From: an uncultured bacterium
Lineage (GTDB): Bacteria > Patescibacteriota > Minisyncoccia > Phycocordibacterales > PALSA-1337
Assembly: GCA_903839725.1 (NCBI GenBank)
Contig: CAIMDG010000002.1
Location: 1,078 to 65,077 of the forward strand
Length of the DNA stretch: 64,000 nucleotides
Reading direction: 5' to 3'
Position numbers and translations under genes: made by a program. The notes under the pieces are model-generated. The model worked only from the letters and a program-made list of their open reading frames with translations. It had not been told where the DNA came from and made no database searches. This document shows, piece by piece, positions 934 to 63,923 of this stretch; the stretch's first letter is position 1, and each line of letters starts with the position of its first letter.

Positions 934-1035
934 TCGCTTCTCGATCCTTAGAACAATAGCCCCACCGACCACCATATCGGCGGGGCTTTCTTTATTCCTA
1001 GTAAGATTACATTACTGAAAATGTAGGAAGCTCAC

Positions 1036-1153
1036 AGCCACAGGGGTGGCACATACTCATTTTCCTCAGAAGTTTGTAAACATTGGGGTACGCGGTGTAA
1101 TGTACATGTCTCTAAACTTCTGAGGAAAATGAGTATGTGCCACCCCTGTGGCT
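1036..1153. repeat. Palindromic element copy 1: 39-bp perfect inverted repeat (1036-1074 / 1115-1153) around a 40-nt conserved core
   Basis: The reverse complement of agccacaggggtggcacatactcattttcctcagaagtt equals aacttctgaggaaaatgagtatgtgccacccctgtggct exactly. The core is tgtaaacattggggtacgcggtgtaatgtacatgtctcta. A weaker outer inverted repeat (gtaagattacattac / gtaatgtaatcttaac) lies at about 1000-1192. Confidence 0.85.
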
Positions 1154-1256
1154 ACAGACTTTGACAAAATGCCTCATGTAATGTAATCTTAACGTTCCTT
1201 ATATACATTCATATATTCAGGTTTTATCAATTAAAAGCCCCAATTAAAGCTATTCT

Positions 1257-26206: not shown

Positions 26207-26430
26207 GTTGTTGATAAAAATTATTAAACGGACATCGTTGCCATTGAATAGTAGTTTCGCAGAACGTAAAAGGCGCTCTCAGGGACGAGAACGTTAGAGA
26301 TGCACGTTACTGCAATTGAATATTCACTGGGTAGGATTAATGATAGACCTTTCTAATCCCTCGCTGTAAGGCAGAACACAATCTGCGAAGTTAGGAGAAC
26401 CCTATCATATAGGCAGAGAAAGTCAAGTAA

Positions 26431-26554
26431 ACAAGGCGGGAGGGGTGTGCATACTCATTTTCTGCACTAGTTTAGAGACATGTACATTACACCACGTACC
26501 TCGATGTTTACAAACTTGTGCAGAAAATGAGTATGCACACCCCTCCCGCCTTGT
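26431..26554. repeat. Palindromic element copy 2: 37-bp perfect inverted repeat around the conserved core in inverted orientation
   Basis: acaaggcgggaggggtgtgcatactcattttctgcac / gtgcagaaaatgagtatgcacacccctcccgccttgt are exact reverse complements. The core tagtttagagacatgtacattacaccacgtacctcgatgtttacaaactt is the reverse complement (about 90% identity) of the copy 1 and copy 3 core. Confidence 0.85.
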
Positions 26555-26665
26555 TTGAAATGACCTGCAATTAGGTCTGCTATTACCAATATATTGACAT
26601 CATACAATTAATATGATTATATTTCATCAAACAACCGAACATTACCAACAAGAAAGGCTACTACT

Positions 26666-27154
26666 ATGGTCTGGAATAGTGCAACAATTTCACAGGCAAG
26701 TAAGACGGACGCCCGATTGATGACACACGTAACACAAGCCAGGGCCTGCATTGAAGAGTGGAATGATGATCCGAAACAGTCCGATGCTTTCCTAGATTAT
26801 CAGTGTCACTCTATCTGTATTGCTTTAGCATCAATTATTCCTGGCCTAACTGTAGTTCACGGATGCTATTGCGGCTTAAAACAAAAATGGCACAAGGGTA
26901 AATTTGTAGACCTTGCATGGACCGCCAAAGATCATTCTTGGTTAACGACCCCAAATGGCAACATCATTGATCCTCATCCCGTAGGCATCATTGCCACAGA
27001 ACCGTTGCTGGTAATCGGCCGAGGTAAAAATGTAGCCTTCGGTGCTGGTCTATACTTCAAAGGTCATATCCAGAAAAGAAAATACTGTAACAAAAAAGTT
27101 GCGCAACAAGTAAAGGTTCTCATAACATTTTTGGAGAGTCGTCGCGCGAAATAA
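26666..27154 (+). CDS. Hypothetical Cys/His-containing protein
   Basis: 162-aa ORF with CH..C...HGCYCG residues. No confident family assignment. Confidence 0.4.
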   Translation: MVWNSATISQASKTDARLMTHVTQARACIEEWNDDPKQSDAFLDYQCHSICIALASIIPGLTVVHGCYCGLKQKWHKGKFVDLAWTAKDHSWLTTPNGNIIDPHPVGIIATEPLLVIGRGKNVAFGAGLYFKGHIQKRKYCNKKVAQQVKVLITFLESRRAK

Positions 27155-28913: not shown

Positions 28914-29273
28914 CTACGCAGCTGGTGTAGGAACAACTTCTGGAGCTGGAGCGGCAGCTGGCTTTGCAGCTTCTGGTGCAACTTCCTTCTTGATAGGAGT
29001 GTGCAATGGGAGAGCATTCAACTTCTTGCCTGTGATAACTTTGTTATGAACGAGGTAATTGTGAAGTGTAAGAGAAAGCTTTGCACCCTTTGACATCCAA
29101 TACTTGATTGCTTCTGTATCTATCTGCTCTGGCTTATTTTTAATACGAGTATCATACCAACCCAAATTCTTGAGATATTTTCCACTCTTTGGACCATTCT
29201 TGGAATCGGTTAATACAACACGGAATGTTGGTTCGTGTTTGCGGCCTGTTCTTTGTAAGCGGATCATTAACAT
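28914..29273 (-). CDS. rpsP: 30S ribosomal protein S16 with Ala/Pro-rich C-terminal extension
   Basis: MLMIRLQRTGRKHEPTFRVVLTD matches the S16 N-terminus. The longest ORF (to 29354) runs into the palindromic element, so the start is set at ATG 29273. Confidence 0.85.
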   Translation of the reverse strand: MLMIRLQRTGRKHEPTFRVVLTDSKNGPKSGKYLKNLGWYDTRIKNKPEQIDTEAIKYWMSKGAKLSLTLHNYLVHNKVITGKKLNALPLHTPIKKEVAPEAAKPAAAPAPEVVPTPAA

Positions 29274-29321
29274 ATGTGGGTGAAAGCTTATCAGAATCGA
29301 TAATAAAACGCAAGATGTAGA

Positions 29322-29437
29322 GGCACACAGGGTACATGCACTCATTTCTCGCACAAGTTTGTAAACATTGTGGTACGCGGTGTAATGTACATGTCTCTAA
29401 ACTTGTGCGAGAAATGAGTGCATGTACCCTGTGTGCC
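29322..29437. repeat. Palindromic element copy 3: 38-bp perfect inverted repeat (29322-29359 / 29400-29437) around a 40-nt core; outer imperfect inverted repeat 29303-29456
   Basis: ggcacacagggtacatgcactcatttctcgcacaagtt / aacttgtgcgagaaatgagtgcatgtaccctgtgtgcc are exact reverse complements. The core tgtaaacattgtggtacgcggtgtaatgtacatgtctcta differs from copy 1 at one base. Confidence 0.85.
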
Positions 29438-29481
29438 CTGCTACTTTGCGTTTTATATAGTTCTGATATACTTTCACCATT

Positions 29482-30171
29482 ATGAAAGTACTCATCGTAG
29501 AAGACGACGTTGCAACAGCAGAAATGGTACGCAATGGTTTGGCGTCGTATCTATATACGACTGACGTCTCATTCGACGGTGCTGATGGTTCATTCATGGC
29601 TCGTAGCTATGAATACGACGCTATTGTACTCGATCATTCCCTACCAAAGAAAAGTGGTCTCACTGTATGCAAAGATATTCGTGCGGCCGGCAAAACTACA
29701 CCGATTATTTTCTTATCAGGACTTGATGCAGTAGAAACAAAGATAGAAGCACTCGAACATGGTGCTGATGATTATATGACAAAACCGTTTTCTCTCGACG
29801 AACTTGATGCACGTCTCAAGGCTCTTGCGCGTCGTCCTATTCAAATCCAAGAACGTATTCTGCAAGTACATGACCTTACACTCGATACACAGACACATGT
29901 AGTCACACGTGGAGGAAAAACGATTCATATGACCAAAAAAGAATTTGGTTTACTTGAATATATTATGAAGCACAAAGGCATCGTACTCTCACGAACATCA
30001 ATTATTGAGCATGTATGGGCTGCCGAAAATGACCCATTCTCAAATACAGTTGAAGCTCATCTACGCAACCTTCGTAAGAAAATAAATTTTGGTAATAAGC
30101 CAGACCTCATACGCAATCTCCCTGGTAGAGGTTATATTATAGACACTCCTGAACATCTTGCGCGTCTATAA
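29482..30171 (+). CDS. OmpR-family two-component response regulator
   Basis: MKVLIVEDDVATAEM receiver N-terminus, conserved Asp in VLDHSLP, K in MTKPF. C-terminal winged-helix (LTKKEFGLLEYIMKHKG...PGRGY). Confidence 0.85.
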   Translation: MKVLIVEDDVATAEMVRNGLASYLYTTDVSFDGADGSFMARSYEYDAIVLDHSLPKKSGLTVCKDIRAAGKTTPIIFLSGLDAVETKIEALEHGADDYMTKPFSLDELDARLKALARRPIQIQERILQVHDLTLDTQTHVVTRGGKTIHMTKKEFGLLEYIMKHKGIVLSRTSIIEHVWAAENDPFSNTVEAHLRNLRKKINFGNKPDLIRNLPGRGYIIDTPEHLARL

Positions 30172-35065: not shown

Positions 35066-36136
35066 CTATTTTTCGAACATTTTGAGATATTGATCTGCCA
35101 TTACTTCACCATTTTTGGTAAATGAATAACTAGACATACCACCAGTTACTCCGCCGAGAAAATATGTCTTGAGTCCAGAAGCAATATTGTTTGTCGAGTG
35201 ACTTTTTGCATATACATCAATGAGTTTGAAAATATCATACGTTACGGAATCATAAAATGGCGACGCAGATTCTATTCCGTACTGTGTTTTGTATACCACC
35301 AAGAAATCTTTGTAAGCTTGAGTTTCTGTAGTAAATCCAGCATCAAAGCAAACTGACTTTAAACCAAATTCTTTTGGTGTAGGTGTATATTCACAGGCAT
35401 TCACATCGCCTATCAGAAGTGGCCTATAATTCAGGACGTCCAATTCCTTGTAAACCAATCCTACTGCTTTGCCACTCGTTGGAACATAAAACAAATTATT
35501 GATGCCTTGCGACTTTAATTTCATGAGTTGTGTGCGGAATGTATTGTCAGTTGCTGAATATGTTTCCTGGCTAATAATTTTTGCACCTAGTTTGTCTTGC
35601 AATGTCATCGCCACGGACTTTGAATAATCTTGCGCTTCATACAAAAGACCAATTTTTGAATCCACTGGTAATTTCAAGGCATAATTTGCCATTGCTCCAG
35701 CGATCGAGAGTGCGTCTGGTATAAATCGGATAACTTCGTCGCCTGTCTTGCGTATTTCAGATGAACCCGCGTATGCGGTGAGAATAAGATTACCACCAGT
35801 TTTTGCAAGTGGTGCCAGGGCCAGAACACTTCCACTGCAACTTACATAGAATACATGAACGTCTTGTTGTGTGAGTTTCAAATATAATGATACAGCTTTC
35901 TTGGTATCACATTGATCATCTTCGAAAATGAGTTGGAATGAAGTCGAACTTGCGAGCTTGATAGAGTTCGCAACTTCCTCGCCAATAAGTCCTGCCGGAC
36001 CACTGAGTGGACCAATTATGCCGATCTTTATTGGCTGATCAATAGAATGGTTTTGCTTTTTAGTAGTGATTACCCAAATAAGAGCCATTATAATAAGAAT
36101 GGAAATTATAATTAGACTAGTGCGAGATGGTTTCAT
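35066..36136 (-). CDS. ABC transporter substrate-binding protein, type I (LivK/Peripla_BP_6-like), membrane-anchored
   Basis: N-terminal TM anchor then IKIGIIGPLSGPAGLIGEEVANSIKLA, the typical start of Leu/Ile/Val-binding-protein family receptors. Confidence 0.75.
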   Translation of the reverse strand: MKPSRTSLIIISILIIMALIWVITTKKQNHSIDQPIKIGIIGPLSGPAGLIGEEVANSIKLASSTSFQLIFEDDQCDTKKAVSLYLKLTQQDVHVFYVSCSGSVLALAPLAKTGGNLILTAYAGSSEIRKTGDEVIRFIPDALSIAGAMANYALKLPVDSKIGLLYEAQDYSKSVAMTLQDKLGAKIISQETYSATDNTFRTQLMKLKSQGINNLFYVPTSGKAVGLVYKELDVLNYRPLLIGDVNACEYTPTPKEFGLKSVCFDAGFTTETQAYKDFLVVYKTQYGIESASPFYDSVTYDIFKLIDVYAKSHSTNNIASGLKTYFLGGVTGGMSSYSFTKNGEVMADQYLKMFEK

Positions 36137-36149
36137 ATATCAAAAATAA

Positions 36150-36902
36150 TTATTCCCCCAAATAAGCTTCAATAACATCCTTCCTCGCCAACACCACACT
36201 TGGTGCACCTTCTGCCAAAAGTTCACCAGAATCTAGAACGTAAATATGATCCGACAATTCACGGATAAGTTCCATATTGTGTTCCACTAGAATGACAGCT
36301 TTACCTTGATCGCGAAGTTCCCTCATGACAGTTACAACCGTTTTGACCATTTCTGGAAAGAGTCCGGCAAATGGTTCATCGAAGAAAATAACATTAATAT
36401 CTCCAACTCCCGAATGAATGATAGCAAGAATACGCGCAATCTCGAGAAGTTTACGTTGTCCATATGAAAGATTTTTAGCGAGTTCACCTCTCTTTTCCCA
36501 GAGACCAACTTTCTTCAACACTTCTTCGGCTTTTTCGAGGTGAAGTTTGCTGTGCTTTTCGAACAATGATTTCCAAATACTTCTTTCGGTGAGTACGACA
36601 AGAATATTGTCGAGGACGAGCATCTGCTCGAATAATCTCACATCTTGGAATGTTCTCGTAATACCAAAGAGTGGTACCTCGTGGGCATTCATTCTCTTGA
36701 GTGTTTCAACACCAGCAATGATTATTTCCCCACCATCCGCAGGAATCATACCTGTCAAAGTGTTGATGAGTGTAGACTTACCCGAACCATTTGGACCGAT
36801 GATGCCCGTAATTTTTCCTGCCTCAAATGAAATCGAAAGTTTGTTAACAGCATGAACGCCGTCGAAGTTTTTGCTTAGTTTGTTGGTGGAGAGGATGGGC
36901 AT
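36150..36902 (-). CDS. livG: Branched-chain amino acid ABC transporter ATP-binding protein (LivG-like)
   Basis: GPNGSGKST Walker A, LSYGQRKLLEIAR signature, IFFDEPFAGL Walker B. Start at ATG 36902 (MPILSTNKLSKNF) to match the LivG N-terminus and avoid overlap. Confidence 0.85.
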   Translation of the reverse strand: MPILSTNKLSKNFDGVHAVNKLSISFEAGKITGIIGPNGSGKSTLINTLTGMIPADGGEIIIAGVETLKRMNAHEVPLFGITRTFQDVRLFEQMLVLDNILVVLTERSIWKSLFEKHSKLHLEKAEEVLKKVGLWEKRGELAKNLSYGQRKLLEIARILAIIHSGVGDINVIFFDEPFAGLFPEMVKTVVTVMRELRDQGKAVILVEHNMELIRELSDHIYVLDSGELLAEGAPSVVLARKDVIEAYLGE

Positions 36903-36916
36903 GTTACACAAATTAC

Positions 36917-38077
36917 CTATTTCAATTCCTGCCACATTTCTTGACCTTTACTGTCAAAATAATGAAGACCAATAGGAACAACAGGATTAACATTCGAGCC
37001 GAGCGTCAATGATCCTGCAGCCCCATTCCAATCCTTAATGGCAGCTAGGTAGTTTTTTATACATACTGTATCTGTTGAACTCTTACATGATTCCATTGCT
37101 TCTTTTACGAGATATACTGCATCATACGAAGTTGCCAAATACGCAATATTTGTTGGAGGTAATTGTTTGTATGCAGTTTTATATGCTTCTATGAATGCAG
37201 CTGTTTTTGAGTTGGCTGAACTTACGAAAGCGTCAGTCGTGAATATGCGAGGATTATTAAGCAATCCACCAGATTGATCATTGATAGCTGCGGACAATGA
37301 TTGTGCACCAGCAATTATTGGATACGTACTGAGCAGACCGAGCTCTTTCATTTGCTTGTAGAATGTAACACTTGCACCCGCACCCTGAGATGCAAATAAT
37401 ATTGCATCTGGCTTTTGTTTATTGATCTTCAATATATATGATCGCAAATCATTTACATCAGAATTGAATGCATCATTCGAAATGACTTGTCCACCCAATT
37501 TCACGAATTCGGCCAAGAATGCTTTGTACACTCCAACTGGAAAATCTTTATTTTCATATAATGCAGCTACTTTTCTATATCCCTGTGAATATGCATACGC
37601 AGCTGACTTGGCAGTATAGAACTCACTCGAAGGAGAATTTCGGAAAATATAACTGCCTGAATTCGTGACTGCAGGTGAAGAAGTAATTGAGGCAATAATG
37701 ACTACTTTGGCTTTTTCTACGATTGGGGCGATAGCGAGAGTCTCGGTACTACAATGTCCACCAAGAATAACATTAACCTTATCTATATTGATCAACTTAT
37801 TTGCAACAGTTGCTGAAGTTGCCCCATCACACTTACCATCTTCAACTATGAGATTCAATTTCTTTCCGAGAATACCTCCGGCTTGATTAATTTCATTCTG
37901 AGCGATCAAAACTGACTGCATTGCTGGTTCTCCGTAACTTGCAGCAGAGCCAGTGAGTGGTGATATAAGACCGATACTAATTTGATTACCCTGATCTTTT
38001 TTGAAGACACCAGAAACCGCAATCACAATAATAATGATAACAATAATCCCCCAAGTTACTTTTTTATTCATGCTCAT
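36917..38077 (-). CDS. ABC transporter substrate-binding protein, type I (LivK-like), membrane-anchored
   Basis: TM anchor then ISIGLISPLTGSAASYGEPAMQSVLIAQNEINQAGGILGKKL. Confidence 0.75.
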   Translation of the reverse strand: MSMNKKVTWGIIVIIIIVIAVSGVFKKDQGNQISIGLISPLTGSAASYGEPAMQSVLIAQNEINQAGGILGKKLNLIVEDGKCDGATSATVANKLINIDKVNVILGGHCSTETLAIAPIVEKAKVVIIASITSSPAVTNSGSYIFRNSPSSEFYTAKSAAYAYSQGYRKVAALYENKDFPVGVYKAFLAEFVKLGGQVISNDAFNSDVNDLRSYILKINKQKPDAILFASQGAGASVTFYKQMKELGLLSTYPIIAGAQSLSAAINDQSGGLLNNPRIFTTDAFVSSANSKTAAFIEAYKTAYKQLPPTNIAYLATSYDAVYLVKEAMESCKSSTDTVCIKNYLAAIKDWNGAAGSLTLGSNVNPVVPIGLHYFDSKGQEMWQELK

Positions 38078-38130
38078 AAATTAGGTTGTAATACCTAAAA
38101 TATACCAAGAATACGATCTTTGAGCTATAG

Positions 38131-39246
38131 CTACCTCCACACCCCTAACACCCCATCTTTCATCACCTGAACCTGTACGTTGATATCTTCAACTGAATGA
38201 TTTGGTGCAAAACTGATCGTACCATTTGGAGTCGTGAACTTTGTTTTGGCGATATAACTAGCAACCTGTGAATTATCAGAACTATGTGCAATAGCTTGTG
38301 CCAAGACGTACGTAGCATCAAAGAATTTATCAACGGACTTTGTAGCCGTCATGTTATAAGCCTTCTGGTACATATCCGCGAATAATTTCGTGGTAACTTC
38401 CCAGTTCAAGATTACAACATTGTTGAGTGGACTCTTGTCAGTCTCATTGGCAAAAGCATCGAGCGCTCCGTTGTATGACATAACGATTGGGGTGAAACCA
38501 AGTTGCTTCGCTTGTTTGAGGAACGTGAGCGGATCATTTCCGACCATGTCGAGGAATACGCCATCCACACCTTTATTCTTTAATTTGATAATTGTAGTTT
38601 TCCAATCATTGTCACCAATCTGTGTATATGGGTTGTCGATAACATCTGCACGACCAAGATCCTTCATGACACCAGCGAGCGTCTTTTCGATTTCAACACC
38701 GAAGCTCGACTGATAATGAACAACAGCCAATTTCTTGATTGTGCTTGAGGCGATGAATGGTTTGATCTTCTGAATTGTCTTGTCGAAGTCTGTAAGCATC
38801 ACGAAACTCTGATCATTCAAGTCAAAGCCACCCGCAATACGGAAGTTCGAAGGAGAAACAAAGGCAATCTTGTCATTCAAGGCAATTGGCAGAATAGGTT
38901 GGGCGGTGAAGTCAAAGACGCCACCAATAACACCGTTTACATGATCGATAGTTACCAGTTTGTTAAAAGCTGAAACTGCCAACTTACCGTCAGTGTGATC
39001 ATCTTCGAAAATGACTTCAACTTTTCTACCGTTGATTCCACCTGCGTCATTGATATTCTTTACTGCCAAGTTAATACCATTCTTGCCATATTCACCCCAA
39101 GGTGCAGCGAAACCTGACAAAGATAATACAGCCCCAATCTTTATTGGATTATTACTTTGTGGCTTTTGACTAGGTCTTGAAACAGAAACACCGATAATCA
39201 CAATGATAATAATAGCGACGACGGTCCATATAATTTTTTTATTCAT
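38131..39246 (-). CDS. ABC transporter substrate-binding protein, type I (LivK-like), membrane-anchored
   Basis: Start at ATG 39246 (MNKKIIW...). IKIGAVLSLSGFAAPWGEYGKNGINLAVKNINDAGGINGRKVEV. Confidence 0.75.
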   Translation of the reverse strand: MNKKIIWTVVAIIIIVIIGVSVSRPSQKPQSNNPIKIGAVLSLSGFAAPWGEYGKNGINLAVKNINDAGGINGRKVEVIFEDDHTDGKLAVSAFNKLVTIDHVNGVIGGVFDFTAQPILPIALNDKIAFVSPSNFRIAGGFDLNDQSFVMLTDFDKTIQKIKPFIASSTIKKLAVVHYQSSFGVEIEKTLAGVMKDLGRADVIDNPYTQIGDNDWKTTIIKLKNKGVDGVFLDMVGNDPLTFLKQAKQLGFTPIVMSYNGALDAFANETDKSPLNNVVILNWEVTTKLFADMYQKAYNMTATKSVDKFFDATYVLAQAIAHSSDNSQVASYIAKTKFTTPNGTISFAPNHSVEDINVQVQVMKDGVLGVWR

Positions 39247-39342
39247 ATATTTTAGGTACATTAAAAGCCGCTTGTGGCGACTTGCACATAGTATATACTC
39301 GTGATATATTATGTCCATAATTCGGCGAAAAGCGAATACTAT

Positions 39343-40107
39343 ATGAATACAAGCTTTCTAGATATATTCAATTTAGGAGACACGTCCAAGGAGGTGCTTC
39401 TTGATATCATCGCCCATGGCGTTTCCTCTGTGGCTGTTATTGCCCGTCGCCTCGGTATGCCAAAGTCGACTGTATATGACGCCATTACCCCCCTTTTGGA
39501 CCAGAGTTTGGTGAATGAATACAGCAATAACCACGGTAAAACCTTTGGTATCTCCGACAATGAACAGCTCAAGCGTGCCCACGAAGAAAAGATCAATGAG
39601 CTCAAAAAGGCCCAGTCTTCCCTGCTCTCATTCATCGGTACACATAACCAAAAAGAAAGTTCAGTTTCTCCGAAGGTAAAATTCTATGCGGGTAATCTGG
39701 GTATCAAGCAGGCGTTCCGCGATATGATGTGGGAAAAGAACATCACCGAAACGTATCTTTTTTGGCCAGCCAAAGAGATGCTCGATATCGACGAAGACTT
39801 CTTCAAATGGCACGGTACTCAGCGTTTCAAATATGGTGTTTACATATATGCGATCGAGACATACAAGGACCGTATCATTCAACGCAATGCGAAACAGAAA
39901 TGGATGCACAATACCAAAGATAGTTTGTCTGAAGCTCGCTATCTACCAAAAGGTGTAAATTGCAAAATGAGTTTCTGGATTTATGGTGACAAATGTCTCT
40001 TTGCTTCTGGCGGTAAAGAAAAGATTGCGTTTGCAGTTCACAGCAAAGAATTCTCGTCCCTGATGAAACTCCTCTGGAAAAATATGTGGGAGAATGCGGA
40101 GAAATAA
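39343..40107 (+). CDS. TrmB-family transcriptional regulator
   Basis: N-terminal HTH LGDTSKEVLLDIIAHGVSSVAVIARRLGMPKSTVYDAITPLLDQSLV plus about 170-aa TrmB-type C-terminal domain. Divergent from the SBP gene at 39246. Confidence 0.7.
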   Translation: MNTSFLDIFNLGDTSKEVLLDIIAHGVSSVAVIARRLGMPKSTVYDAITPLLDQSLVNEYSNNHGKTFGISDNEQLKRAHEEKINELKKAQSSLLSFIGTHNQKESSVSPKVKFYAGNLGIKQAFRDMMWEKNITETYLFWPAKEMLDIDEDFFKWHGTQRFKYGVYIYAIETYKDRIIQRNAKQKWMHNTKDSLSEARYLPKGVNCKMSFWIYGDKCLFASGGKEKIAFAVHSKEFSSLMKLLWKNMWENAEK

Positions 40108-40136
40108 AAAACACCGAATGATCGGTGTTTTTTATT
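40106..40136. terminator. Bidirectional hairpin terminator
   Basis: aaaaaacaccgaatgatcggtgttttttattttt. Confidence 0.7.
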
Positions 40137-40137
40137 T

Positions 40138-41217
40138 TTAATTCGGCAACTTTCCTCCCTCAATCGTTCCAATCTTTAATTCTGGAATGCGCACACCATT
40201 TTCATCAAACACAATCTTTCCATCAGCCCCGACGAGGGTGACATGCTTCATATTGTTCACCCATGTAGCCTTATCTGAATTGTAACTTTGAGCTAGAAGC
40301 ATAAAAGCATTGTAACCAGTCTCTGAACCGATCGCCGGTTCGACACCATACATTTTCTTGTAAGCCTCATTGAACGTACTGCGGTACACGTTTGGAACGG
40401 TATAGAGAATACTTCCATTTAACACATTCATATTTCCGAGCACTTTCGCATAGTCACCAAATCCTGTTTGGATATTTGCGTCGAATACATACCGATATTT
40501 TGTGTGTGAGATTGAACCGAGCTCCTTTGCAAGAAGTCCGCCAGAAGTTGGTTTGACGATAAACACGATTACGTCTGGCTTGAATGAGATCGCTTTCAAA
40601 GCACTTGATTTGATATCCCGACCATCAGCTGAAACTTGGATTTCGTTGTATGGCATAGCAAATCCTTTTTCAAAACCTTGAGCAAAACGTTCAAAAGCCG
40701 AAGATCCTTTGTCGACAAACACAACGGCATTCTTGAATCCTTTACCAGCAACGTATTTACCAAGCTCAACTTCAGCTGGCACACTTCCTGGCCACAACTG
40801 AACAATGTTGTCATTCGCCGCTTCAATTCCTTGTTCAAAACCGAGAGCAACTGGCATACCAGTCTGCACAACGTCTCCATAGATCGAATCAATTGTAACC
40901 GTTGTCATGTTAATGAGACCATCAACATGATCAATACTTACAAGTTTCTTGTAGGCCGAAAGTCCTTTCTTGGAATCAAAACTGTCATCTTCAGTTATAA
41001 GCGAAATCTGTTGATTTATATGTGAACTATTCCATTCAGCCTGAGCGAGCTTTGCACCTTTGGCAAAACTATCACCGACAGCGGCATAATCACCGGTCAT
41101 TCCAGCAATCATGCCAAATGTGAGCTGTGTGGTTGGTTTCTTCGTATTAAACAAACCAATCATCACAATAACTAGAATTACCACAACTAGGCCTGAAATT
41201 TGATATTTTTTATTCAT
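40138..41217 (-). CDS. ABC transporter substrate-binding protein, type I (LivK-like), membrane-anchored
   Basis: Start ATG 41217 (MNKKYQISGL...). LTFGMIAGMTGDYAAVGDSFAKGAKLAQAEWN. Confidence 0.75.
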   Translation of the reverse strand: MNKKYQISGLVVVILVIVMIGLFNTKKPTTQLTFGMIAGMTGDYAAVGDSFAKGAKLAQAEWNSSHINQQISLITEDDSFDSKKGLSAYKKLVSIDHVDGLINMTTVTIDSIYGDVVQTGMPVALGFEQGIEAANDNIVQLWPGSVPAEVELGKYVAGKGFKNAVVFVDKGSSAFERFAQGFEKGFAMPYNEIQVSADGRDIKSSALKAISFKPDVIVFIVKPTSGGLLAKELGSISHTKYRYVFDANIQTGFGDYAKVLGNMNVLNGSILYTVPNVYRSTFNEAYKKMYGVEPAIGSETGYNAFMLLAQSYNSDKATWVNNMKHVTLVGADGKIVFDENGVRIPELKIGTIEGGKLPN

Positions 41218-41387
41218 ATAATGTGATTTATTTGTAACAATATTAGTATACATATATCAAATATAATCAAGAAATAAATCATAACTTTGAATATATACAT
41301 GAATTATATCCATATGTATCAATCCATATCTAAATATTAGTATGTCAGGAATATTGACACTTTCATACATAATGCTAGAATCTACAC

Positions 41388-42203
41388 ATGAAAATCAAAC
41401 AAAGTTCAATCATAGACCTCCTACAGCTCAGCAAAAAAGAGCAGGTCATTTTCAACCTACTCAACAATGAATCATCCACACCTGTATCACTAGCCAAGAA
41501 ATGCTCTATCCCCCGCCCTACCATATATATCACTCTCGAAAAGCTCCACAACCGTGGCTTAATCATAAAAAAGAAAATCTCACACAAAACCTACTGGCAA
41601 AAGAATTCTGATGATGAAATCGAGAGTCTCGCCTACCGATTCAAGGAGTTGCTTTCAGCAAGTAGTGCTACAAAGCAAGAAAAGATTTCCATCACTGATT
41701 CTTCACAGGTCGTTGTTCATCGTGGACAAAAAGCTATCTTCAAACTATTCTCCAGTCTAGTTGACGAACACGCTGGTGAAAAGATGATCGCACTTCAGGG
41801 AAATCTTGCAGGATATGCGTGGAGTAAGTTATTTAACGTGCAAGAAATTAACATCATCAACCAGAAGATTAAGAAAAATAAAGTTATTACGGAACTTGTT
41901 ACTTCTAGGGAGTGGTTCAAGAGTCAAACTGAACTCTTTGGTACAGGTTGGGCCAAAAACTTTGAAGGTAGAACGATTCGTATGCAGGATGTTGGGAACC
42001 AGTACTTGAATTACGCTAGTCAGATATTTATTTTCAGAGACAAAGTATATATTGACGCAATGTCGGATAAAGTCTTCATCGAAATAAAGAACCCAGAGAT
42101 TGCGAAGCTGCTGGTTTCAATTACGCAGTTTGTTCAAGATCATTCGGAGGTGTTGGATGCGAATAAACTTCTCAGAGAACTGATCAGTAACAATTCAAAA
42201 TAG
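41388..42203 (+). CDS. TrmB-family transcriptional regulator
   Basis: HTH LSKKEQVIFNLLNNESSTPVSLAKKCSIPRPTIYITLEKLHNRGLI plus TrmB C-terminal domain. Confidence 0.7.
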   Translation: MKIKQSSIIDLLQLSKKEQVIFNLLNNESSTPVSLAKKCSIPRPTIYITLEKLHNRGLIIKKKISHKTYWQKNSDDEIESLAYRFKELLSASSATKQEKISITDSSQVVVHRGQKAIFKLFSSLVDEHAGEKMIALQGNLAGYAWSKLFNVQEINIINQKIKKNKVITELVTSREWFKSQTELFGTGWAKNFEGRTIRMQDVGNQYLNYASQIFIFRDKVYIDAMSDKVFIEIKNPEIAKLLVSITQFVQDHSEVLDANKLLRELISNNSK

Positions 42204-43070
42204 TTATAACCTATACTCCCCAACCAAACCCTGTGGCCTATACAACATCAACAGTATCAATATAACACCATACACCACTTGACGCATTTGCGCTGCAATG
42301 TCATCTGGAAAACCGACGAAGCGCAGGACTTCCGGCAAAAGGATGAGACATATTGCCCCGATAACTGCACCCTTGTTATTCGCCATACCACCCAAGATAA
42401 CCACAGCCAGAATGAAGATGGATTCCGTCAAAGTGAAACTCGATGGATCGATAAATGTAATGTACGAAGCAAAAAGTGAGCCTGCCACTGCCGCCATTCC
42501 TGCCGAGACAACGAAGATGGCGAGCTTGTACCAGAGAACGCGGTAACCAAAGACTTGAATAGCTTTTTCATCTTCACGGATAGCCTTGAGCACACGACCA
42601 AACGATGAATTCGTAATGTAGTGACAAACACCAAAAACAATCAGAGCACAGACAACCGCAAGAACAAGGAACCAACTATTTTCAGAGAAAGTAAAACCGA
42701 ATATGCTTGGGCGAGGAATTCCAGGAATACCGAGCGGACCACGTGTGAGCGACTGCCAATTCAAGAAAATACTATAAATGATGACGTTGAAACCAAATGA
42801 ACCCAGTGCATAATAATCATCTTTGAATTTTGAAAGCACAAAACCTATCGCTAGACTCAACACTGCGGTAATGATAATACTGAAAAGCATAGCGAGAAAG
42901 AAATTCATGCCAACTGAAGTAAGCAGGATTGCTGTCACATATGCACCAATACCATAGAATGCTGCTTGAGTAATACTGAGCAGACCTGTGAATCCTACAA
43001 TCAAGTTCAAAGAAAGACCGAGAATGGCGTAGATCGAGATCAGGATGGCAATGTGTATGAGATATTCCAT
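42204..43070 (-). CDS. livM: Branched-chain amino acid ABC transporter permease (LivM-like)
   Basis: Eight or more TM helices. GIPGIPRP and EAAFYGIGAY-type motifs of the LivM family. Confidence 0.8.
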   Translation of the reverse strand: MEYLIHIAILISIYAILGLSLNLIVGFTGLLSITQAAFYGIGAYVTAILLTSVGMNFFLAMLFSIIITAVLSLAIGFVLSKFKDDYYALGSFGFNVIIYSIFLNWQSLTRGPLGIPGIPRPSIFGFTFSENSWFLVLAVVCALIVFGVCHYITNSSFGRVLKAIREDEKAIQVFGYRVLWYKLAIFVVSAGMAAVAGSLFASYITFIDPSSFTLTESIFILAVVILGGMANNKGAVIGAICLILLPEVLRFVGFPDDIAAQMRQVVYGVILILLMLYRPQGLVGEYRL

Positions 43071-43071
43071 A

Positions 43072-43938
43072 TTATTTCTTTAATATTCCCTGTGGTCTAA
43101 ACAACAAAAAAATAATCAATACTCCGAAGGCAATCGCATCTTTCCATTCACCGGAAATCTGCCAGATACCAAAGTTCTCGATAAAGCCGAGGAGGAATGC
43201 ACCGAGTACACCGCCATATACATTGCCGATACCACCGATGATACACGCAATCACACCTTTCAAGAGAAGTGACAATCCCATCGTTGGTTCTATACCAGTA
43301 TCAAAGCCAACGAGAATACCAGCGAGACCGGCGATCGCTGAGCCTATAAAAAATGTCCATCCGATAACTCTAACAGTATTGATACCAACGATCTTCGAAA
43401 CTTCCTCATCATCCCCCACTGCTTTGATAGCTTTACCGAACAATGTGTACCTGAACATGAGACCAATACCAACCATGATGAGAATTCCGAGAATGAGAAT
43501 GATAAGTTGTGTCTGCGTGATCACTCCGCCAAAAACGGTATATACCATTTCACTACCCGCATTTTTCGAAAGTGTCTGGAATTGACTCGTAAATAAAATA
43601 GCAATAATAGCCTGTAATGCTGTCATCACTCCGAGAGCAGCAACCAGAAGAACCATGCTTGATGATTTGCGAGTACGTAGTGGTGCGTATACAAAATGAT
43701 ATATAAGTACCCCAATAGTTCCTGCAATGAGAATACCGAGAGCAACAGAAACGAATATATCTAAACCGAGTATTTTATAGAAGAAGAAAACAGTATATCC
43801 ACCAACCGCCGCAAGAGCACCGTATCCCAAATCAAAGAATTTAGCTGTACCGTAAATCAGATTGAAACCGAGAGCGACCATGGCATATATCGCTCCAGCA
43901 ATGATTGAGTTGACGATGAGTTGAGGGATGATGTCCAT
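43072..43938 (-). CDS. livH: Branched-chain amino acid ABC transporter permease (LivH-like)
   Basis: Polytopic membrane protein. GYGALAAVGGY and EPTMGLSLLLKG motifs of the LivH family. 1-nt gap to livM. Confidence 0.8.
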   Translation of the reverse strand: MDIIPQLIVNSIIAGAIYAMVALGFNLIYGTAKFFDLGYGALAAVGGYTVFFFYKILGLDIFVSVALGILIAGTIGVLIYHFVYAPLRTRKSSSMVLLVAALGVMTALQAIIAILFTSQFQTLSKNAGSEMVYTVFGGVITQTQLIILILGILIMVGIGLMFRYTLFGKAIKAVGDDEEVSKIVGINTVRVIGWTFFIGSAIAGLAGILVGFDTGIEPTMGLSLLLKGVIACIIGGIGNVYGGVLGAFLLGFIENFGIWQISGEWKDAIAFGVLIIFLLFRPQGILKK

Positions 43939-44160
43939 GAATGTATGTAATACAGCTAAGTATACCCATTAAATAGGTACTTGAAAATAGACCATTATTT
44001 GATATCCTAAAGACTGAAAGGACCTCTATGAAATACGATCGACCAACGTGCACCTCAGCAACAACAACTCGGCCACCCATTTCGGCGAATTTTTCACCGC
44101 CACCCGCGGAACCCCGCCCGAAACCGGCTGCCAAACCGAAAAAGTAGGGACCGAAGCTGC

Positions 44161-44194
44161 ACAACAAAAGCCCACGAACTTGTTCGTGGGCTTT
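44161..44194 (-). terminator. Rho-independent terminator after the SBP gene
   Basis: 11-bp stem agcccacgaac/gttcgtgggct followed, on the minus strand, by ttttgttgtg. Confidence 0.65.
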
Positions 44195-44220
44195 CATACT
44201 AATACAATTAACTAATCAAC

Positions 44221-45333
44221 TTACTGAACATCTACAAACTTACCATCTTTGGCGATTTTTATCATTGCAGGTTTCTGAACATCTCCATTTGATTCAAATG
44301 TAATAACGCCACTTGCGCCTTGATAATTATTACCAATCTTTAATAAATTTTCTTTTATTGAATCACCAGAAGTTCCCCCAGCTTTGATAGCTCTAAGTAA
44401 CAAGGTCATAGCATCATACCCTTCTGCGGTATACATTGTTGGAGCATTTCCAAAACGAGCCTTGTATCTTTCCGTAAAAGTTTTACTTGCTTCATTTGTT
44501 GGAACCACAGTGGCTGAAACTAAAACCCCATTTACATCCTTTCCTCCAACATCGAAGAATTCTTTTGTATCTACCGATTCGTCCAGAGCTGCAAATTGAA
44601 CATGTAAACCTAGATTCTTTGCTTGCTTAAAGATTAAATTGAATTGCTTATAAAATGACGCGACGAAGATTACATCAACTCCAGCCCCCTTCGCCTTTAA
44701 TAATTGAGTTCTAAAATCTGTGTCTTTTGCATTAAAGGTATCTTTTGTCACAACTTGACCACCTGCTTTAGCAAAAGTATCACTAGCATCACTAACTTCT
44801 TGGACCATCGTATCCTGACTATTGTCGTTTATGAAAGCTGCTTTTTTAAAGCCTTTTGAATACACGTACTCTGCCAAAGAATTTGCCCTGACTGAATCTG
44901 AAGCAATTGTTCTGAACATATATTTACCAGCATTAGTCAAAGTCTTTGAAGTTGCTGCTGGTGTAATTATCAATATTTTTTTAGGATCGGTAATTGGTAA
45001 TACTGATAAAACTTCAGAAGAACATACTGGGCCATACAAAGCATCTACCTTATCAATATTTAATAACTTAGATACAGCAGTAACACCATCTGCTGAGGCA
45101 CAATTGTGATCATCTTCAATAATGAAATTAACCTTATCTTTCATACCACTTTCTTCAATTGCCATAATAGCAGCATTGCGAGAACTTTCAGCATATGAAG
45201 CCAAATCTCCAGAAAGTGGCAATACGGCTCCAATCTTAACAGGACCAATCTCAGTATTTGAATTACGTGTTGCAGAAATAATGATTATCACAACCACAAC
45301 AATTCCAATCACCCACCAAATACCTTTTTTCAT
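44221..45333 (-). CDS. ABC transporter substrate-binding protein, type I (LivK-like), membrane-anchored
   Basis: TM anchor then VKIGAVLPLSGDLASYAESSRNAAIMAIEESG. Confidence 0.75.
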   Translation of the reverse strand: MKKGIWWVIGIVVVVIIIISATRNSNTEIGPVKIGAVLPLSGDLASYAESSRNAAIMAIEESGMKDKVNFIIEDDHNCASADGVTAVSKLLNIDKVDALYGPVCSSEVLSVLPITDPKKILIITPAATSKTLTNAGKYMFRTIASDSVRANSLAEYVYSKGFKKAAFINDNSQDTMVQEVSDASDTFAKAGGQVVTKDTFNAKDTDFRTQLLKAKGAGVDVIFVASFYKQFNLIFKQAKNLGLHVQFAALDESVDTKEFFDVGGKDVNGVLVSATVVPTNEASKTFTERYKARFGNAPTMYTAEGYDAMTLLLRAIKAGGTSGDSIKENLLKIGNNYQGASGVITFESNGDVQKPAMIKIAKDGKFVDVQ

Positions 45334-45390
45334 AATAAAGAATAATTACAAATAATATGTCAATTATAGTTGATACTCCCATTTCTGCAA

Positions 45391-45422
45391 CAACAAAAAA
45401 CCACCCTCTCGAGTGGTTTTTT
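45391..45422. terminator. Hairpin terminator (sequence duplicated at 47512)
   Basis: caacaaaaaaccaccctctcgagtggtttttt. The identical 32-mer recurs at 47512-47543. Confidence 0.7.
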
Positions 45423-45437
45423 ACTGTTCAAATTAAC

Positions 45438-46538
45438 TTATGGCTGTATTGTTATTGGTTTACCATCTTTAATCATACGTATTACCGCTCCAGAAACAAC
45501 AAGTCCATCAGAATCAATACTAAGATTCCCCAAGGCCCCTTGAACGTTTTTGATTGTATACAATTTTTCAGCAATCTGTTCTGACGTCGGCAATGTATTT
45601 GAGTCTACTTTTTCTGCAGCATCTGAAATTAAATGAATTATATCGTAAGCGTTTCCTGCCCCGAGTGAAGGTGGTTTATTATAGATTTTTGAATAAGAAT
45701 CTATAAATGATAATGTTGTATCAGCACCATTTACGTACCAATCTCCTTCATATATTTCAGGATGATCACTTTGTTCAAACGATTCTATAGAAGTAACAGG
45801 CGTAGTGATTCCATTTTCTTTAAGTTGTTTTGCAATAAGATCCAATTCTGGACTAAAGGCAAACAATACGTATATATCCGGATGATTGGATTGTGCCTTA
45901 GCAATCATCGTTCTAAAATCTTTTGTGCCAAAATCAAACATTTCTTGATCTACTATCTGTATGTCTGTATTTTGTATATCTTTTTGCAAAGAATGTATCA
46001 CGGCCGTTACACCTTGTATTTTAGCACCCAATATTGCCACCCTATGATATCCTCGCTTTTGTAATTCTGGCACAAAGATCTTCGTCTCCTCATAAGGTGG
46101 GGTCCAGTGAATAAAATTATAATGGCCATTTGCGACATTTGGATCAGAAGCAATACCAAACTGAATAACACGTGCTTTTTCAGCAACTGGATTGACCGCA
46201 TTACCTGCTGCCGAAGCAAGTGTGACGATTGCCGCTACATGATCAATAGATATAAGTTTTTGGGCTGCACTTACTGCCTTTGACGCATCAAATGAATCAT
46301 TTTCAAGTATTACCTTGTATTGCCATTTATTATTTGTAGTTGAAGCCAACTCAGCTTCAGCCATGCGAACCGCGTATTTAATCCCATCGCCCAAAAAGGC
46401 AACATTTCCAGTTAAAGGTGCGATGACACCAATTTTTATTATTTTATTATCATTTAATACTATGTGCTTAGAGTAATTAGCTCCAATCAAAATACCGGCC
46501 AAAATGACGATTATTACGACAAAAATCTTTGTTTTCAT
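45438..46538 (-). CDS. ABC transporter substrate-binding protein, type I (LivK-like), membrane-anchored
   Basis: TM anchor then IKIGVIAPLTGNVAFLGDGIKYAVRMAEAE. Confidence 0.75.
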   Translation of the reverse strand: MKTKIFVVIIVILAGILIGANYSKHIVLNDNKIIKIGVIAPLTGNVAFLGDGIKYAVRMAEAELASTTNNKWQYKVILENDSFDASKAVSAAQKLISIDHVAAIVTLASAAGNAVNPVAEKARVIQFGIASDPNVANGHYNFIHWTPPYEETKIFVPELQKRGYHRVAILGAKIQGVTAVIHSLQKDIQNTDIQIVDQEMFDFGTKDFRTMIAKAQSNHPDIYVLFAFSPELDLIAKQLKENGITTPVTSIESFEQSDHPEIYEGDWYVNGADTTLSFIDSYSKIYNKPPSLGAGNAYDIIHLISDAAEKVDSNTLPTSEQIAEKLYTIKNVQGALGNLSIDSDGLVVSGAVIRMIKDGKPITIQP

Positions 46539-46714
46539 ATATACATATTATTAGTAGTAATATGTATCCTTAATATCATTACCCCAAAACTTGTTTATAT
46601 CTTTAGAAGAGTAGCTAAATATATATTCATATTTAAAGCCATATTTTGATATAAAATTTAATAGTGTGCGTCCATAGTGACAAAATCTGTATATGTGATA
46701 ACATATATATCATT

Positions 46715-47509
46715 ATGTCAATGGATACAAAAATATACAAAGAATTAAACAGGTTCGGCTTATCAGATAAATCAGCCAAAGTGTATGCTGTTCTACTTGA
46801 TCTTGGTGGAGCCTACCCTTCACGTATAGCTGAATCAGCCCATCTAAACCGTACAACTGTTTATAAAATATTAATTGATCTTTCCATAAAAGGTCTAATA
46901 AATGAAATAAACAAAAATGGTAAAGTCTTCTATCAAGTAGAACGTCCATCTCAGCTTATTAAATATGCAAAAAATCGTAGGGATACAGCGGATGAACAAT
47001 ACGAGAGAATAAAGAATCTTATGCCAGAAATAGAAGGTCTGTACTCACTCACGCCCAATAAACCAAAGATACGATACTTTGAGGATAGCTCTAGTGTCGC
47101 CTCTATATTCGAAGATCAAGTCGATGTAAAGAAACCTTACGAAATGGTGGGTTTTGCAAATATTGAAAGGCTTGAAAAATTTCTAAAACCTTCATTTATA
47201 AAATGGTATATAAAAGAAAAGGAAAGAAAAGGAATTACTACCAGAGGAATTCTGCCTGACACCAAATTAAACAGAACATACAATGAACGTGTATACAAAG
47301 TTATAAACAAAAAATTCCAGTTAAATAACATTCGCTACATTCCGAAAGAAGAATTTCCTTTTAATGGTGAGATAACGATTTACGGAGAAAACAAGATGTC
47401 TATAATTAATTTTATTGACGAACAAGCTGTGGGGATTATTATCGAAGACAAAGCAATTCACGACATGATGGTTAGAATATTTGAGCTCTCTTGGAAAGGT
47501 TCCCAGTAA
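46715..47509 (+). CDS. TrmB-family transcriptional regulator
   Basis: HTH LSDKSAKVYAVLLDLGGAYPSRIAESAHLNRTTVYKILIDLSIKGLI. Start at the internal ATG (MSMDTKIYKEL), not the longest ORF. Confidence 0.7.
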   Translation: MSMDTKIYKELNRFGLSDKSAKVYAVLLDLGGAYPSRIAESAHLNRTTVYKILIDLSIKGLINEINKNGKVFYQVERPSQLIKYAKNRRDTADEQYERIKNLMPEIEGLYSLTPNKPKIRYFEDSSSVASIFEDQVDVKKPYEMVGFANIERLEKFLKPSFIKWYIKEKERKGITTRGILPDTKLNRTYNERVYKVINKKFQLNNIRYIPKEEFPFNGEITIYGENKMSIINFIDEQAVGIIIEDKAIHDMMVRIFELSWKGSQ

Positions 47510-47511
47510 CC

Positions 47512-47545
47512 CAACAAAAAACCACCCTCTCGAGTGGTTTTTTGT
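47512..47545. terminator. Hairpin terminator (duplicate of 45391)
   Basis: caacaaaaaaccaccctctcgagtggttttttgt. Confidence 0.7.
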
Positions 47546-47562
47546 TCTACGACTTTTACCTT

Positions 47563-48681: not shown

Positions 48682-48855
48682 ATATTTACTATTAATTATT
48701 AATGTGGTGAAATTATAACACGCAAATTGATTTTGTTATTTTTAAATATTAAATTGATGTATAAATACGGCTTATAATATAGGGTATTGTAGTTATCCAC
48801 ATATTTTGTTCGTTAAAAGTGACAAAATACATCATTCCTGCTATACTGTATACAT

Positions 48856-50052: not shown

Positions 50053-50139
50053 CGGAGGGTAAGAGATTTGAACTCTTGATACCCTTTCGGGTATACCACC
50101 TTTCCAAGGTGGCGCACTAGACCACTATGCGAACCCTCC
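50053..50139 (-). tRNA. tRNA-Ser (anticodon GGA)
   Basis: Minus-strand sequence GGAGGGT..ACCCTCC acceptor stem. Anticodon stem CCACC/GGTGG with loop TTGGAAA (anticodon GGA). Long variable arm TATACCCGAAAGGGTATC. T-arm AAGAG-TTCAAAT-CTCTT. Discriminator G. CCA not encoded. Confidence 0.85.
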
Positions 50140-59235: not shown

Positions 59236-59260
59236 TTCACAGAAACAATAAAAACCGCCA

Positions 59261-59291
59261 CAGCGATGTGGCGGTTTTTAGTATAAAGGAA
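59261..59291 (+). terminator. Rho-independent terminator downstream of rnj
   Basis: aaaaaccgccacagcgatgtggcggttttta. Confidence 0.75.
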
Positions 59292-59306: not shown

Positions 59307-59428
59307 AGAACAGACGTAATATGCACGGTTTTTAAGACCCTTCGGAGCCACGAAGAGTGGCGAGAATGAGTGCGCGTTCAGCAGAACGCGACACGTGTCT
59401 TAAAAACCGTGCATATTACGTCTGTTCT
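59307..59428. repeat. 122-bp palindromic element with nested internal hairpins (candidate structured ncRNA)
   Basis: 32-bp perfect inverted repeat agaacagacgtaatatgcacggtttttaagac / gtcttaaaaaccgtgcatattacgtctgttct enclosing 58 nt with two sub-hairpins (cttcg-gagcca-cgaag and cgcgttc-agca-gaacgcg). Confidence 0.7.
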
Positions 59429-63753: not shown

Positions 63754-63783
63754 GTGATTATTATACCTTGCCACAGTTGTTTC

Positions 63784-63903
63784 GCGAAGCAGGAGGGTGT
63801 GTACTCATTTTTCTCTTATAGGTTAGAGGCCCTCACATCACTCCGCATACCACATTGTTTTTAACCTATGAGAGAAAAATGAGTACACACCCTCCTGCTT
63901 CGC
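63784..63903. repeat. Palindromic element copy 4: 42-bp inverted repeat (1 mismatch) with homologous arms but a different 36-nt core
   Basis: gcgaagcaggagggtgtgtactcatttttctcttataggtta / taacctatgagagaaaaatgagtacacaccctcctgcttcgc. Arms share the GGGTGTG.ACTCATTTTC motif with copies 1-3. Core gaggccctcacatcactccgcataccacattgtttt. Confidence 0.8.
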
Positions 63904-63923
63904 CCCTATGATATAATCAACAC

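Follow-up and report, generated by a model that had tools for sequence, protein, structure and literature searches.

Long near-perfect DNA palindromes with co-evolving arms and exchangeable centres beside core-gene promoters in a Paceibacteria lineage

Introduction

A 64,000-nt stretch of DNA from an uncultured bacterium (positions 1,078 to 65,077 of contig CAIMDG010000002.1, assembly GCA_903839725.1; hereafter the window) carries four copies of a long palindromic element, called family A, upstream of typA, rpoB, rpsP and an aldolase gene. The relatives of its TypA place the host in the Parcubacteria/Paceibacteria, near Taylorbacteria, within the candidate phyla radiation (CPR). Family A is one of several palindrome families (A, B, C and others) that occupy promoter-bearing or terminator-adjacent intergenic slots in this lineage. 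The two arms of a copy match almost perfectly even where they differ from the arms of every other copy, and orthologous copies in two sister species have changed on both arms at once. The finding is real and well supported, and the evolutionary behaviour is unusual: flanks are conserved, arms correct each other, and a central cassette is flipped and replaced in concert.

The sequence patterns favour, with a probability of about one half, a reading of these elements as DNA-level palindromic repeats that would behave like REPINs or miniature inverted-repeat transposable elements (MITEs), selfish or semi-domesticated, with template switching keeping their arms symmetrical. The evidence for matched arms and mobile centres is given first, followed by the setting of the elements and the explanations that compete for them.

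Four elements with matched arms

The initial annotation had described four elements with long complementary arms. All four lie where it placed them, w2 alone being 2 nt wider on each side, and its arm consensus is correct (Table 1). Family A elements in the window are each about 120 bp long and consist of near-perfect arms of 39-45 bp around a directional spacer, the length of which is uniform in the family at about 38 nt. This asymmetric spacer is nearly identical in w1-w3 (GTAAACATYGNGGTACGYGGTGTAATGTACATGTCTCT), and that of w4 is a diverged version of it. A conserved 31-mer of the spacer, GGTACGYGGTGTAATGTACATGTCTCTAAAC, has three occurrences in the window, where 100 shuffles predict none. 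Assignment of the neighbouring genes by Pfam bears out the earlier identifications and distances, with typA 104 nt, rpoB about 222 nt, rpsP 48 nt and the class II aldolase gene 31 nt away; the true ATG lies at 29273 for rpsP and at 63753 for the aldolase.

The palindromes are extremely stable when folded. A 131-nt element region reaches −84 kcal/mol on the plus strand (z = −14), and the other strand is comparable (z = −15.5). A covariance model built from seven copies recovers exactly w1-w4 in the window, and RNAalifold on the same number of copies finds both-sided changes at 26 of 49 pairs. The arms are therefore unlike between copies yet matched within each copy, as first noted, and the four elements belong to a true repeat family with co-evolving arms.

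Table 1. Palindromic elements, associated promoters and slot occupancy. Positions without a contig label refer to the window; labels such as L084 denote other contigs. Source, the genome of the window; S1 and S2, sister species; A, B and C, palindrome families.
Feature	Position	Strand	Structure or sequence	Setting	Source	S1	S2
w1, family A	1036..1153		arms 1036-1075 and 1114-1153, 40/40 complementary; spacer 1076-1113, 38 nt, 'main', directional	between the terminator of open reading frame (ORF) 97-933 and the typA promoter; orthologous elements in S1 and S2			
w2, family A	26429..26556		arms 39 perfect, or 44/45 with one mismatch; 'main' spacer in reverse orientation	between divergent rpoB and ORF 26666-27154; rpoB −35 AGTCAA at 26421-26426, minus strand, 2 nt away			
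w3, family A	29322..29437		arms 39/39 perfect; 'main'-type spacer	between divergent rpsP (28914-29273, minus strand) and response-regulator (RR) gene (29482-30171)			
w4, family A	63784..63903		arms 41/42, one T·G; diverged spacer	between divergent aldolase gene (62893-63753, minus strand) and PfkB kinase gene (63927 onward)			
Family B	L084:9713-9819; L089:7987-8091		arms 37 nt (GATGCAAATACGCAAATGYATGCGAATRACGCGAAT); spacer 31-34 nt	found by a scan for long perfect inverted repeats			
Family C	59307..59428		arms 32/32; 58-nt spacer with two small hairpins	between convergent RNase J and SLT genes			
Four comparable hairpins	L035; L039; two in L043			80 other Paceibacteria; none directly upstream of typA			
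Inferred typA promoter	1161..1189	+	TTGACA-17 nt-TAATCT	element ends 7 nt upstream of −35			
Outer inverted copy of typA −10 region	1002..1015		TAAGATTACATTAC; partner GTAATGTAATCTTA at 1178-1191	20-24 non-palindromic nt from the arms			
Mirrored promoter, left half	29279..29313		inverted partner of 29446-29478; TTGCGT = −35, TGnTAnnCT = −10 on both sides				
Mirrored promoter, right half	29446..29478			response-regulator side			
Slot upstream of S1-domain gene					A	A	A
Slot pth (peptidyl-tRNA hydrolase)/ORF278					B	B	none
Slot upstream of typA					A, main spacer	A, alt spacer	unrelated hairpin
Slot upstream of rpoB					A	none	6-bp hairpin only
Slot rpsP/RR					A	C-like	A
Slot RNase J/SLT					C	not covered	C
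Slot aldolase/PfkB					A	A	A
Slot TGT/LDcluster4					B	A	A
Slot upstream of RluA					A	not covered	none

Arm co-evolution and spacer inversion

Two sister species allow orthologous elements to be compared. S1 comes from sample ERZ27300174 (aldolase 97% identical to that of the source genome) and S2 from the GROS21-1 set (91% identical); their syntenic loci were reached through homologues of the aldolase, TrmD and ORF 97-933. At 4-fold sites the source shows a raw divergence of about 0.30 from S1 and of about 0.50 from S2.

Pairing between arms is kept throughout. Among 845 arm pairs in 22 elements, 831 are Watson-Crick, 5 are G·T and 9 are other mismatches. The orthologous arms of the source and of S1 or S2 differ at 48 positions; at 44 of these both arms were altered with pairing kept, and at the remaining 4 only one arm changed. 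The comparison of w3 with its S2 orthologue (L097:8806-8919) is the most instructive, as the arms are perfect in each species, differ at 6 positions and carry a mirrored 1-nt indel, while the spacer, 32/38 identical, is inverted. Family C follows the same pattern against its S2 orthologue (L094:15207-15328), with a spacer identical at 55 of 58 positions and arms that differ at 12 of 32, 10 of them compensated. The two source copies of family B differ at two arm positions, both compensated. The G·T mismatches are distributed over both strands, and a strand-of-origin test based on them is uninformative. A same-species megahit contig (L089:9845-9977) differs from w4 by four transversions (G>T, A>T, C>A, C>A) in one arm only; these may be genuine changes that lack compensation, or the hairpin may have caused an error of assembly or sequencing.

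Inversion of the spacer relative to the flanking genes is seen not only in w3, between source and S2, but also in a family B copy (B1), between source and S1. In addition, S1 and S2 each contain a twin pair, E1 and E2, in which the copy at TGT/LDcluster4 is the twin of that genome's copy at aldolase/PfkB, 1.9 kb away, and the twins have mutually inverted spacers within S1 and within S2.

The centre of the element also changes as a unit. Each locus has its own sequence in the outer 15-20 nt of the arms, and orthologues preserve it. In the orthologues of w4 (S1 L093:3759-3876; S2 L094:9852-9970) the outer arms are kept, reading GCGAAGC[A/C]GGAGGGTGTG[T/C]ACT at aldolase/PfkB with two compensated changes, and the inner arms and spacer have been replaced. 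The four family A copies of S1, which are 87-100% identical among themselves, all carry an 'alt' spacer, GATAATCG...GGGTACGTGTTATCT. In the source genome the 'main' type is found in the slots preceding typA and the S1-domain gene, and the aldolase-PfkB slot contains a diverged variant. The cassette of inner arms plus spacer is homogenised within a genome and different between sister genomes at orthologous sites.

The scarcity of wobble pairs, the equal folding of both strands and the inversion of the spacer together speak for a symmetry imposed on the DNA and against selection on an RNA stem. To explain the matched arms, the initial annotation had offered compensatory change, gene conversion across the hairpin or hairpin-templated copying. 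A cause in DNA copying is the best explanation that we infer, given the near absence of wobble, the mirrored indel and the spacer inversion.

Occupancy of orthologous slots

Comparison of intergenic regions among the three species, which had been proposed as a check on mobility, reveals that elements have come or gone at pth/ORF278 and in the slots preceding rpoB and RluA, and that most slots are stably occupied (Table 1). Three slots have changed family: TGT-LDcluster4 (B or A), rpsP-RR (A or C-like) and typA (A, or another family in S2). The C-like element in the rpsP-RR slot of S1 lies at L096:about 30-190. At the w2 site, S2 has a 6-bp hairpin, ACAAGGgtagaCCTTGT, which matches the outermost ends of the w2 arms. 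This suggests that palindrome centres may be preferred landing sites, w2 sitting in a small local hairpin of 6-8 bp that S2 has retained without the insert; a rival account of the same site is an interior deletion in S2.

Copies beyond the window and further families

The initial annotation had pointed to the rest of the genome and to its relatives as places to look for more copies, and copies are present in both: the flank of the window holds some, as do a related metagenome and the two sister species. Additional source-genome flank was taken from contigs encoding window proteins, 10 kb on each side, and contains two more family A copies just beyond the window (L089:1043-1162 and L084:1-84). 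A related JGI metagenome has four family A copies on three contigs (L001-L003), with arms that differ yet are self-complementary. The match of these elements to those of the window is limited to the inner ~82 nt, and orthology of the three contigs to the window was dropped for this reason. The 'main' and 'alt' spacers occur together on one metagenome contig. A scan of the GTDB species genomes with the spacer pattern gave no match.

Two other families share the architecture of family A, namely a length of 105-125 bp, arms of 32-45 bp and an asymmetric spacer, and no motif is common to the three. Family B has perfect arms made of GCAAAT/GCGAAT-like units, and its copy at L084:9713-9819 lies about 90 nt to the left of window position 1. 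The family C element directly adjoins a putative bidirectional terminator. The latter is a hairpin, AAAAACCGCCACAGCGATGTGGCGGTTTTT, at 59257-59285, bordered by runs of A and of T on opposite sides, and appears to be common to RNase J and SLT. The family C spacer contains GCGAGAATGAGTGC, which is similar to the family A arm motif GCGAGAAATGAGTGC of w3; families A and C may share ancestry or have recombined.

The source genome has roughly 9 elements in 84 kb, as against 4 long hairpins in 560 kb from 80 other Paceibacteria. Since hairpins are few in these other genomes and none lies directly upstream of typA, the expansion is lineage-specific. Long perfect hairpins of further families do occur in other Paceibacteria (L043:1617-1746, L043:1764-1911, L039:343-459, L035:4887-5037 and L099:7473-7589), so the architecture is wider than family A. 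Their arms are 28-34 nt and their spacers 53-95 nt, and some have in common an arm motif, CATTC(A/T)TTTTTC, and an internal GCCAAAAT hairpin.

The palindromes recur in independent ENA, JGI and Logan assemblies and are thus not assembly artefacts. Contigs often break at the elements, and contig ends fall inside or beside palindromes in L085, L086, L088, L090, L096, L099 and L003. Gene callers place spurious small ORFs on them, for example a 58-aa call at L089:997-1173.

Promoters and outer palindromy

The −35 and −10 boxes of the flanking genes were recognised by sequence and conservation, and are conserved in S1 and S2. The elements stop just short of them: the gap between the element end and the inferred −35 is 7 nt at typA, 2 nt at rpoB, about 5 nt at RluA and, for rpsP and RR, about 8 nt on each side. 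The gene that precedes w1 ends in a canonical terminator of its own, at 958-987. Because they are sited upstream of the inferred −35 and −10 boxes, family A copies are predicted to lie outside the leaders of the flanking genes. This position, together with a spacer that can point either way relative to the genes, is at odds with the earlier suggestion of RNase III processing sites or leader RNAs.

At several loci the palindromy continues outward into the promoter. The 14-nt outer inverted copy at typA has a score reached by none of 300 shuffles and is conserved in source, S1 and S2. The typA −35/−10 arrangement itself is kept in S1, S2 and relatives that have no element; the outer copy is absent from the more distant relatives that share the same promoter. 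The promoters of rpsP and RR are mirror images of each other over 35 nt, about 88% matched, with a score of 41 that was again reached by 0/300 shuffles. They lengthen the w3 palindrome to about 200 bp, and source, S1 and S2 all preserve the two halves. At the RluA site an 18-nt outer inverted copy of the −10 region is present in the source and absent in S2, where there is no element.

Maintenance and spread of the palindromes

The favoured mechanism would act during replication. Template switching inside the palindrome (quasipalindrome correction) would copy one arm from the other and so place a substitution or an indel on both arms in a single step. The same process could flip the spacer and lengthen the repeat outward into the flanking promoters. 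Spread and cassette exchange may proceed by hairpin-dependent transposition or gene conversion, with the arm segment GGGTGYRYACTCATTTTC serving as homology or as a recognition sequence. By analogy, multiple copies, several co-resident families, twin duplication, gains and losses, and genome-wide spacer replacement are what would be expected of selfish repeats of the REPIN/MITE type. The initial annotation had raised a MITE-like mobile family with a preference for promoter-proximal insertion, and this view survives in part. Gains and losses at three sites and a twin 1.9 kb away speak for mobility; no target-site duplication or transposase was found in the loci examined, and most slots are stable. 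Because the arms are not REP palindromes, a conserved foot motif and target-site duplications are lacking, and no RAYT was seen in the examined loci, the elements are described as REPIN-like in behaviour and not as members of those families.

Several observations weigh against this reading. Pfam finds no transposase, RAYT or recombinase in the 64-kb window, about 20 kb of source flank and about 108 kb of S1 and S2. Phage and plasmid collections and viral contigs gave no match that would point to a parent insertion sequence with the same ends. No copy shows a target-site duplication or is bordered by direct repeats, and the ends vary from copy to copy. Nor did comparison of any filled site with its empty counterpart yield clean element boundaries. 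Most slots carry a hairpin in all species examined, the family being sometimes different. Divergence of the spacers, and at some sites of the arms, is far below that of 4-fold sites, at 5% for the family C spacer (source-S2), about 7% for the w4 outer arms and about 16% for w3 arms and spacer; such low divergence fits host-level purifying selection, and hence function, although homogenisation between copies could mimic it. Template switching is itself deduced from sequence patterns. It does not simply account for the outer inverted copies that lie past a non-palindromic gap of 20-24 nt, nor does it explain the exchange of cassettes between loci.

The stable slots and the low divergence lend some weight to a role in the host. 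The elements could be structural modules of the DNA under host selection, either cruciforms formed under negative supercoiling or protein-binding sites, that would act as insulators, activating or repressing elements, or supercoil buffers, and in which the hairpin would matter more than its sequence. This explanation is the main rival, though unlikely overall. It is favoured by slots filled in all three species at the S1-domain gene, typA, rpsP-RR, aldolase-PfkB and TGT-LDcluster4, even across a change of family. The distance of only 2-8 nt from element end to downstream −35 box, found to either side where promoters diverge, agrees with it as well, as do spacers and arms conserved beyond 4-fold sites and an inverted copy of the typA −10 kept in three species. 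Evidence against it comes from relatives whose TypA is 86-88% identical and which have the same typA promoter and no element, from the rpoB promoter devoid of an element in S1 and S2, and from the other divergent promoters of the window (binding-protein/TrmB-like), which lack one too. The families have no common motif, family C lies between convergent genes and not at a promoter, and replacement of the spacer type throughout a genome resembles drive more than selection site by site. A further, unlikely reading is that of a previously undescribed DNA-level system of CPR bacteria. The slots would be fixed cruciforms a few bases upstream of housekeeping promoters, within which a hairpin-specific enzyme or a homing process would flip and replace the asymmetric ~38-nt cassette genome-wide in concert. 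If this were so, the outcome would be a layer of regulation or insulation that is inherited, or else mobile DNA of a new kind with existing palindrome tips as its homing sites. A true REPIN-RAYT-type system, in which a domesticated single-copy Y1/HUH transposase encoded elsewhere, one per family, moves the hairpins as single strands, is improbable. Several co-resident families of one architecture, extragenic and hairpin-forming, would be accommodated by it, as would the duplication of a whole element to a site 1.9 kb off, and the compensatory changes and long vertical persistence match REPINs (PMC3116915). The arms, however, are not REP-like palindromes (6/7 tested fold no better than shuffled sequence; the w1 arm has a small 5-bp hairpin), the flanks have no common motif and the hairpin foot no conserved tetranucleotide. 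The most conserved part here is the centre, while in REPINs it is the ends. No PF01797-type protein is encoded in the window or in the fetched source, S1 and S2 loci, which cover part of the genome only.

Two further explanations concern the hairpin as RNA and the spacer as a switch. Structured RNAs, whether small RNA genes, leaders or RNase III hairpins, would have a stem under selection for RNA pairing and a functional loop. The very strong covariation, both-sided at over half of the pairs tested by RNAalifold, the conserved loop and the extremely stable fold are all features of such RNAs, and family C lies in a probable 3' untranslated region. In RNA stems with this degree of drift, several per cent of pairs are normally G·U, as against 5 of 845 arm pairs here. 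Either strand is as structured as the other, orthologues differ in the direction in which the asymmetric loop faces the neighbouring genes, and most copies follow a terminator and precede the inferred promoters. No Rfam family was matched, and E-value searches gave sub-threshold generic microRNA hairpins or nothing; an RNA origin of the symmetry is accordingly very unlikely. The least probable of these explanations is a phase-variable inverton, in which recombination between the arms flips a ~38-nt spacer carrying a minimal promoter between the flanking genes. Perfect inverted repeats do flank the spacer, both orientations exist at orthologous sites, and the 'main' spacer holds TTGTAA-18 nt-TAATGT, a weak promoter-like string. 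That string is a poor match that the promoter scan does not call, and the three to four independent assemblies of the same species all show one orientation. There is no invertase nearby and no recombinase in the window, the flanking genes have conserved promoters of their own, and the spacers of families B and C are unrelated.

A number of other identities were rejected. A promoter in the spacer was set aside, the candidate string being weak, uncalled and absent from families B and C. Intrinsic terminators are not a suitable description, as no T-run follows any arm of w1-w4 and the upstream gene of w1 has its own terminator. Integron attC sites were discounted on the grounds of locus-specific ends, dispersed copies and the lack of an integrase in the window, and TIGR arrays because the elements are scattered and do not follow one another in tandem. 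Small ORFs that begin with the conserved arm ATGAGT vary in length and frame between copies, and some copies have no upstream ATG. A phage, plasmid or viral origin was likewise dismissed: BLAST gave no match, and viral scans returned nothing or chance 17-mers without the surrounding element.

Comparison with known systems

Template switching has been described to homogenise the arms of inverted repeats and to invert their spacers (PMC8604942). It also expands inverted repeats near promoters (PMC13100816) and creates or maintains hairpins through apparent compensatory changes made in one step (PMC8794818). The resemblance of these cases to the present elements (PMC8604942, PMC8794818, PMC13100816, PMC7202029) extends to perfect arms, mirrored clusters of changes, precise spacer inversion and outward expansion. 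The earlier cases are mostly single short repeats with arms of 7-20 bp and spacers of a few nucleotides. The elements reported here, in contrast, form a multi-copy family with arms of about 40 bp and spacers of 31-58 nt, and exchange a central cassette between loci.

REPINs are hairpin-forming mobile repeats that persist vertically and show compensatory changes (PMC3116915). With REPIN/REP-BIME-RAYT systems (PMC3116915, PMC3333891, PMC2817692), the common ground is considerable: short extragenic repeats that form long hairpins, belong to several families, are inherited vertically and change in a compensatory manner. Both kinds of element may be moved or maintained as single-stranded DNA hairpins. 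The differences are equally clear. The arms here are not REP (repetitive extragenic) palindromes but near-perfect complements of about 40 bp, there is no GTAG-type foot, and no RAYT was found in the examined loci. The conserved and exchanged part is the centre, that is, the inner arms and spacer, and these repeats reside in a streamlined CPR genome. A precedent for mobile DNA in the centre of a palindrome comes from insertion sequences with REP/BIME hairpins as their targets (PMC1525189). Comparable targeting could explain the nested position of w2 and the replacement of one family by another in a single slot; those insertion sequences code for protein, whereas the inserted unit here is a small non-coding palindrome.

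The architecture also recalls the intergenic repeats of other bacteria. ERIC/IRU of enterobacteria, Correia elements of Neisseria and RUP/BOX of pneumococcus are 100-150 bp long, have long inverted arms, are often promoter-proximal or co-transcribed, and show presence/absence differences between relatives. They have defined terminal repeats and arms that decay independently, and Correia and ERIC elements are associated with TA target duplication. In the present elements no target-site duplication is seen, the ends are locus-specific and the arms stay perfect.

No account of such elements in CPR bacteria was found in the searchable literature. The genomes of CPR/Patescibacteria are very small and generally held to be poor in repeats and mobile DNA. 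This lineage carries roughly one long perfect palindrome per 10 kb, beside core promoters (rpoB, rpsP, typA, aldolase). The orthologous triples could be used to test whether template switching or selection for pairing is the source of 'compensatory' hairpin evolution. There is a practical side as well, in that the elements break metagenome assemblies, fragment the metagenome-assembled genomes of the lineage and prompt spurious calls of small ORFs.

Observations on neighbouring genes

The rpoB gene has a 5' leader of about 185 nt that is near-invariant among source, S1 and S2 (window 26207-26400, minus strand; L096:2540-2764; L097:10880-11091). It lies downstream of a TTGACT / TGnTAnnnT promoter, and rpoB 4-fold sites differ by 13-26% in the same comparisons. 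The leader has no Rfam match and may be an undescribed cis-regulatory leader.

The aldolase and PfkB genes are apparently leaderless, with TATAAT, 6 nt and then ATG (window 63754-63783 and 63904-63945). Their first codons have TTCAAGAAGYCA in common, in mirror orientation and in different reading frames, which could reflect chance, convergence or an old inverted duplication.

A run of paralogous Peripla_BP_6 genes occupies window positions 35066-49653, four of them divergently paired with TrmB-like regulator genes; the intergenic regions between these divergent pairs hold no palindrome. An 87-nt tRNA gene at 50053-50139, on the minus strand, is the sole Rfam match at gathering level in the window.

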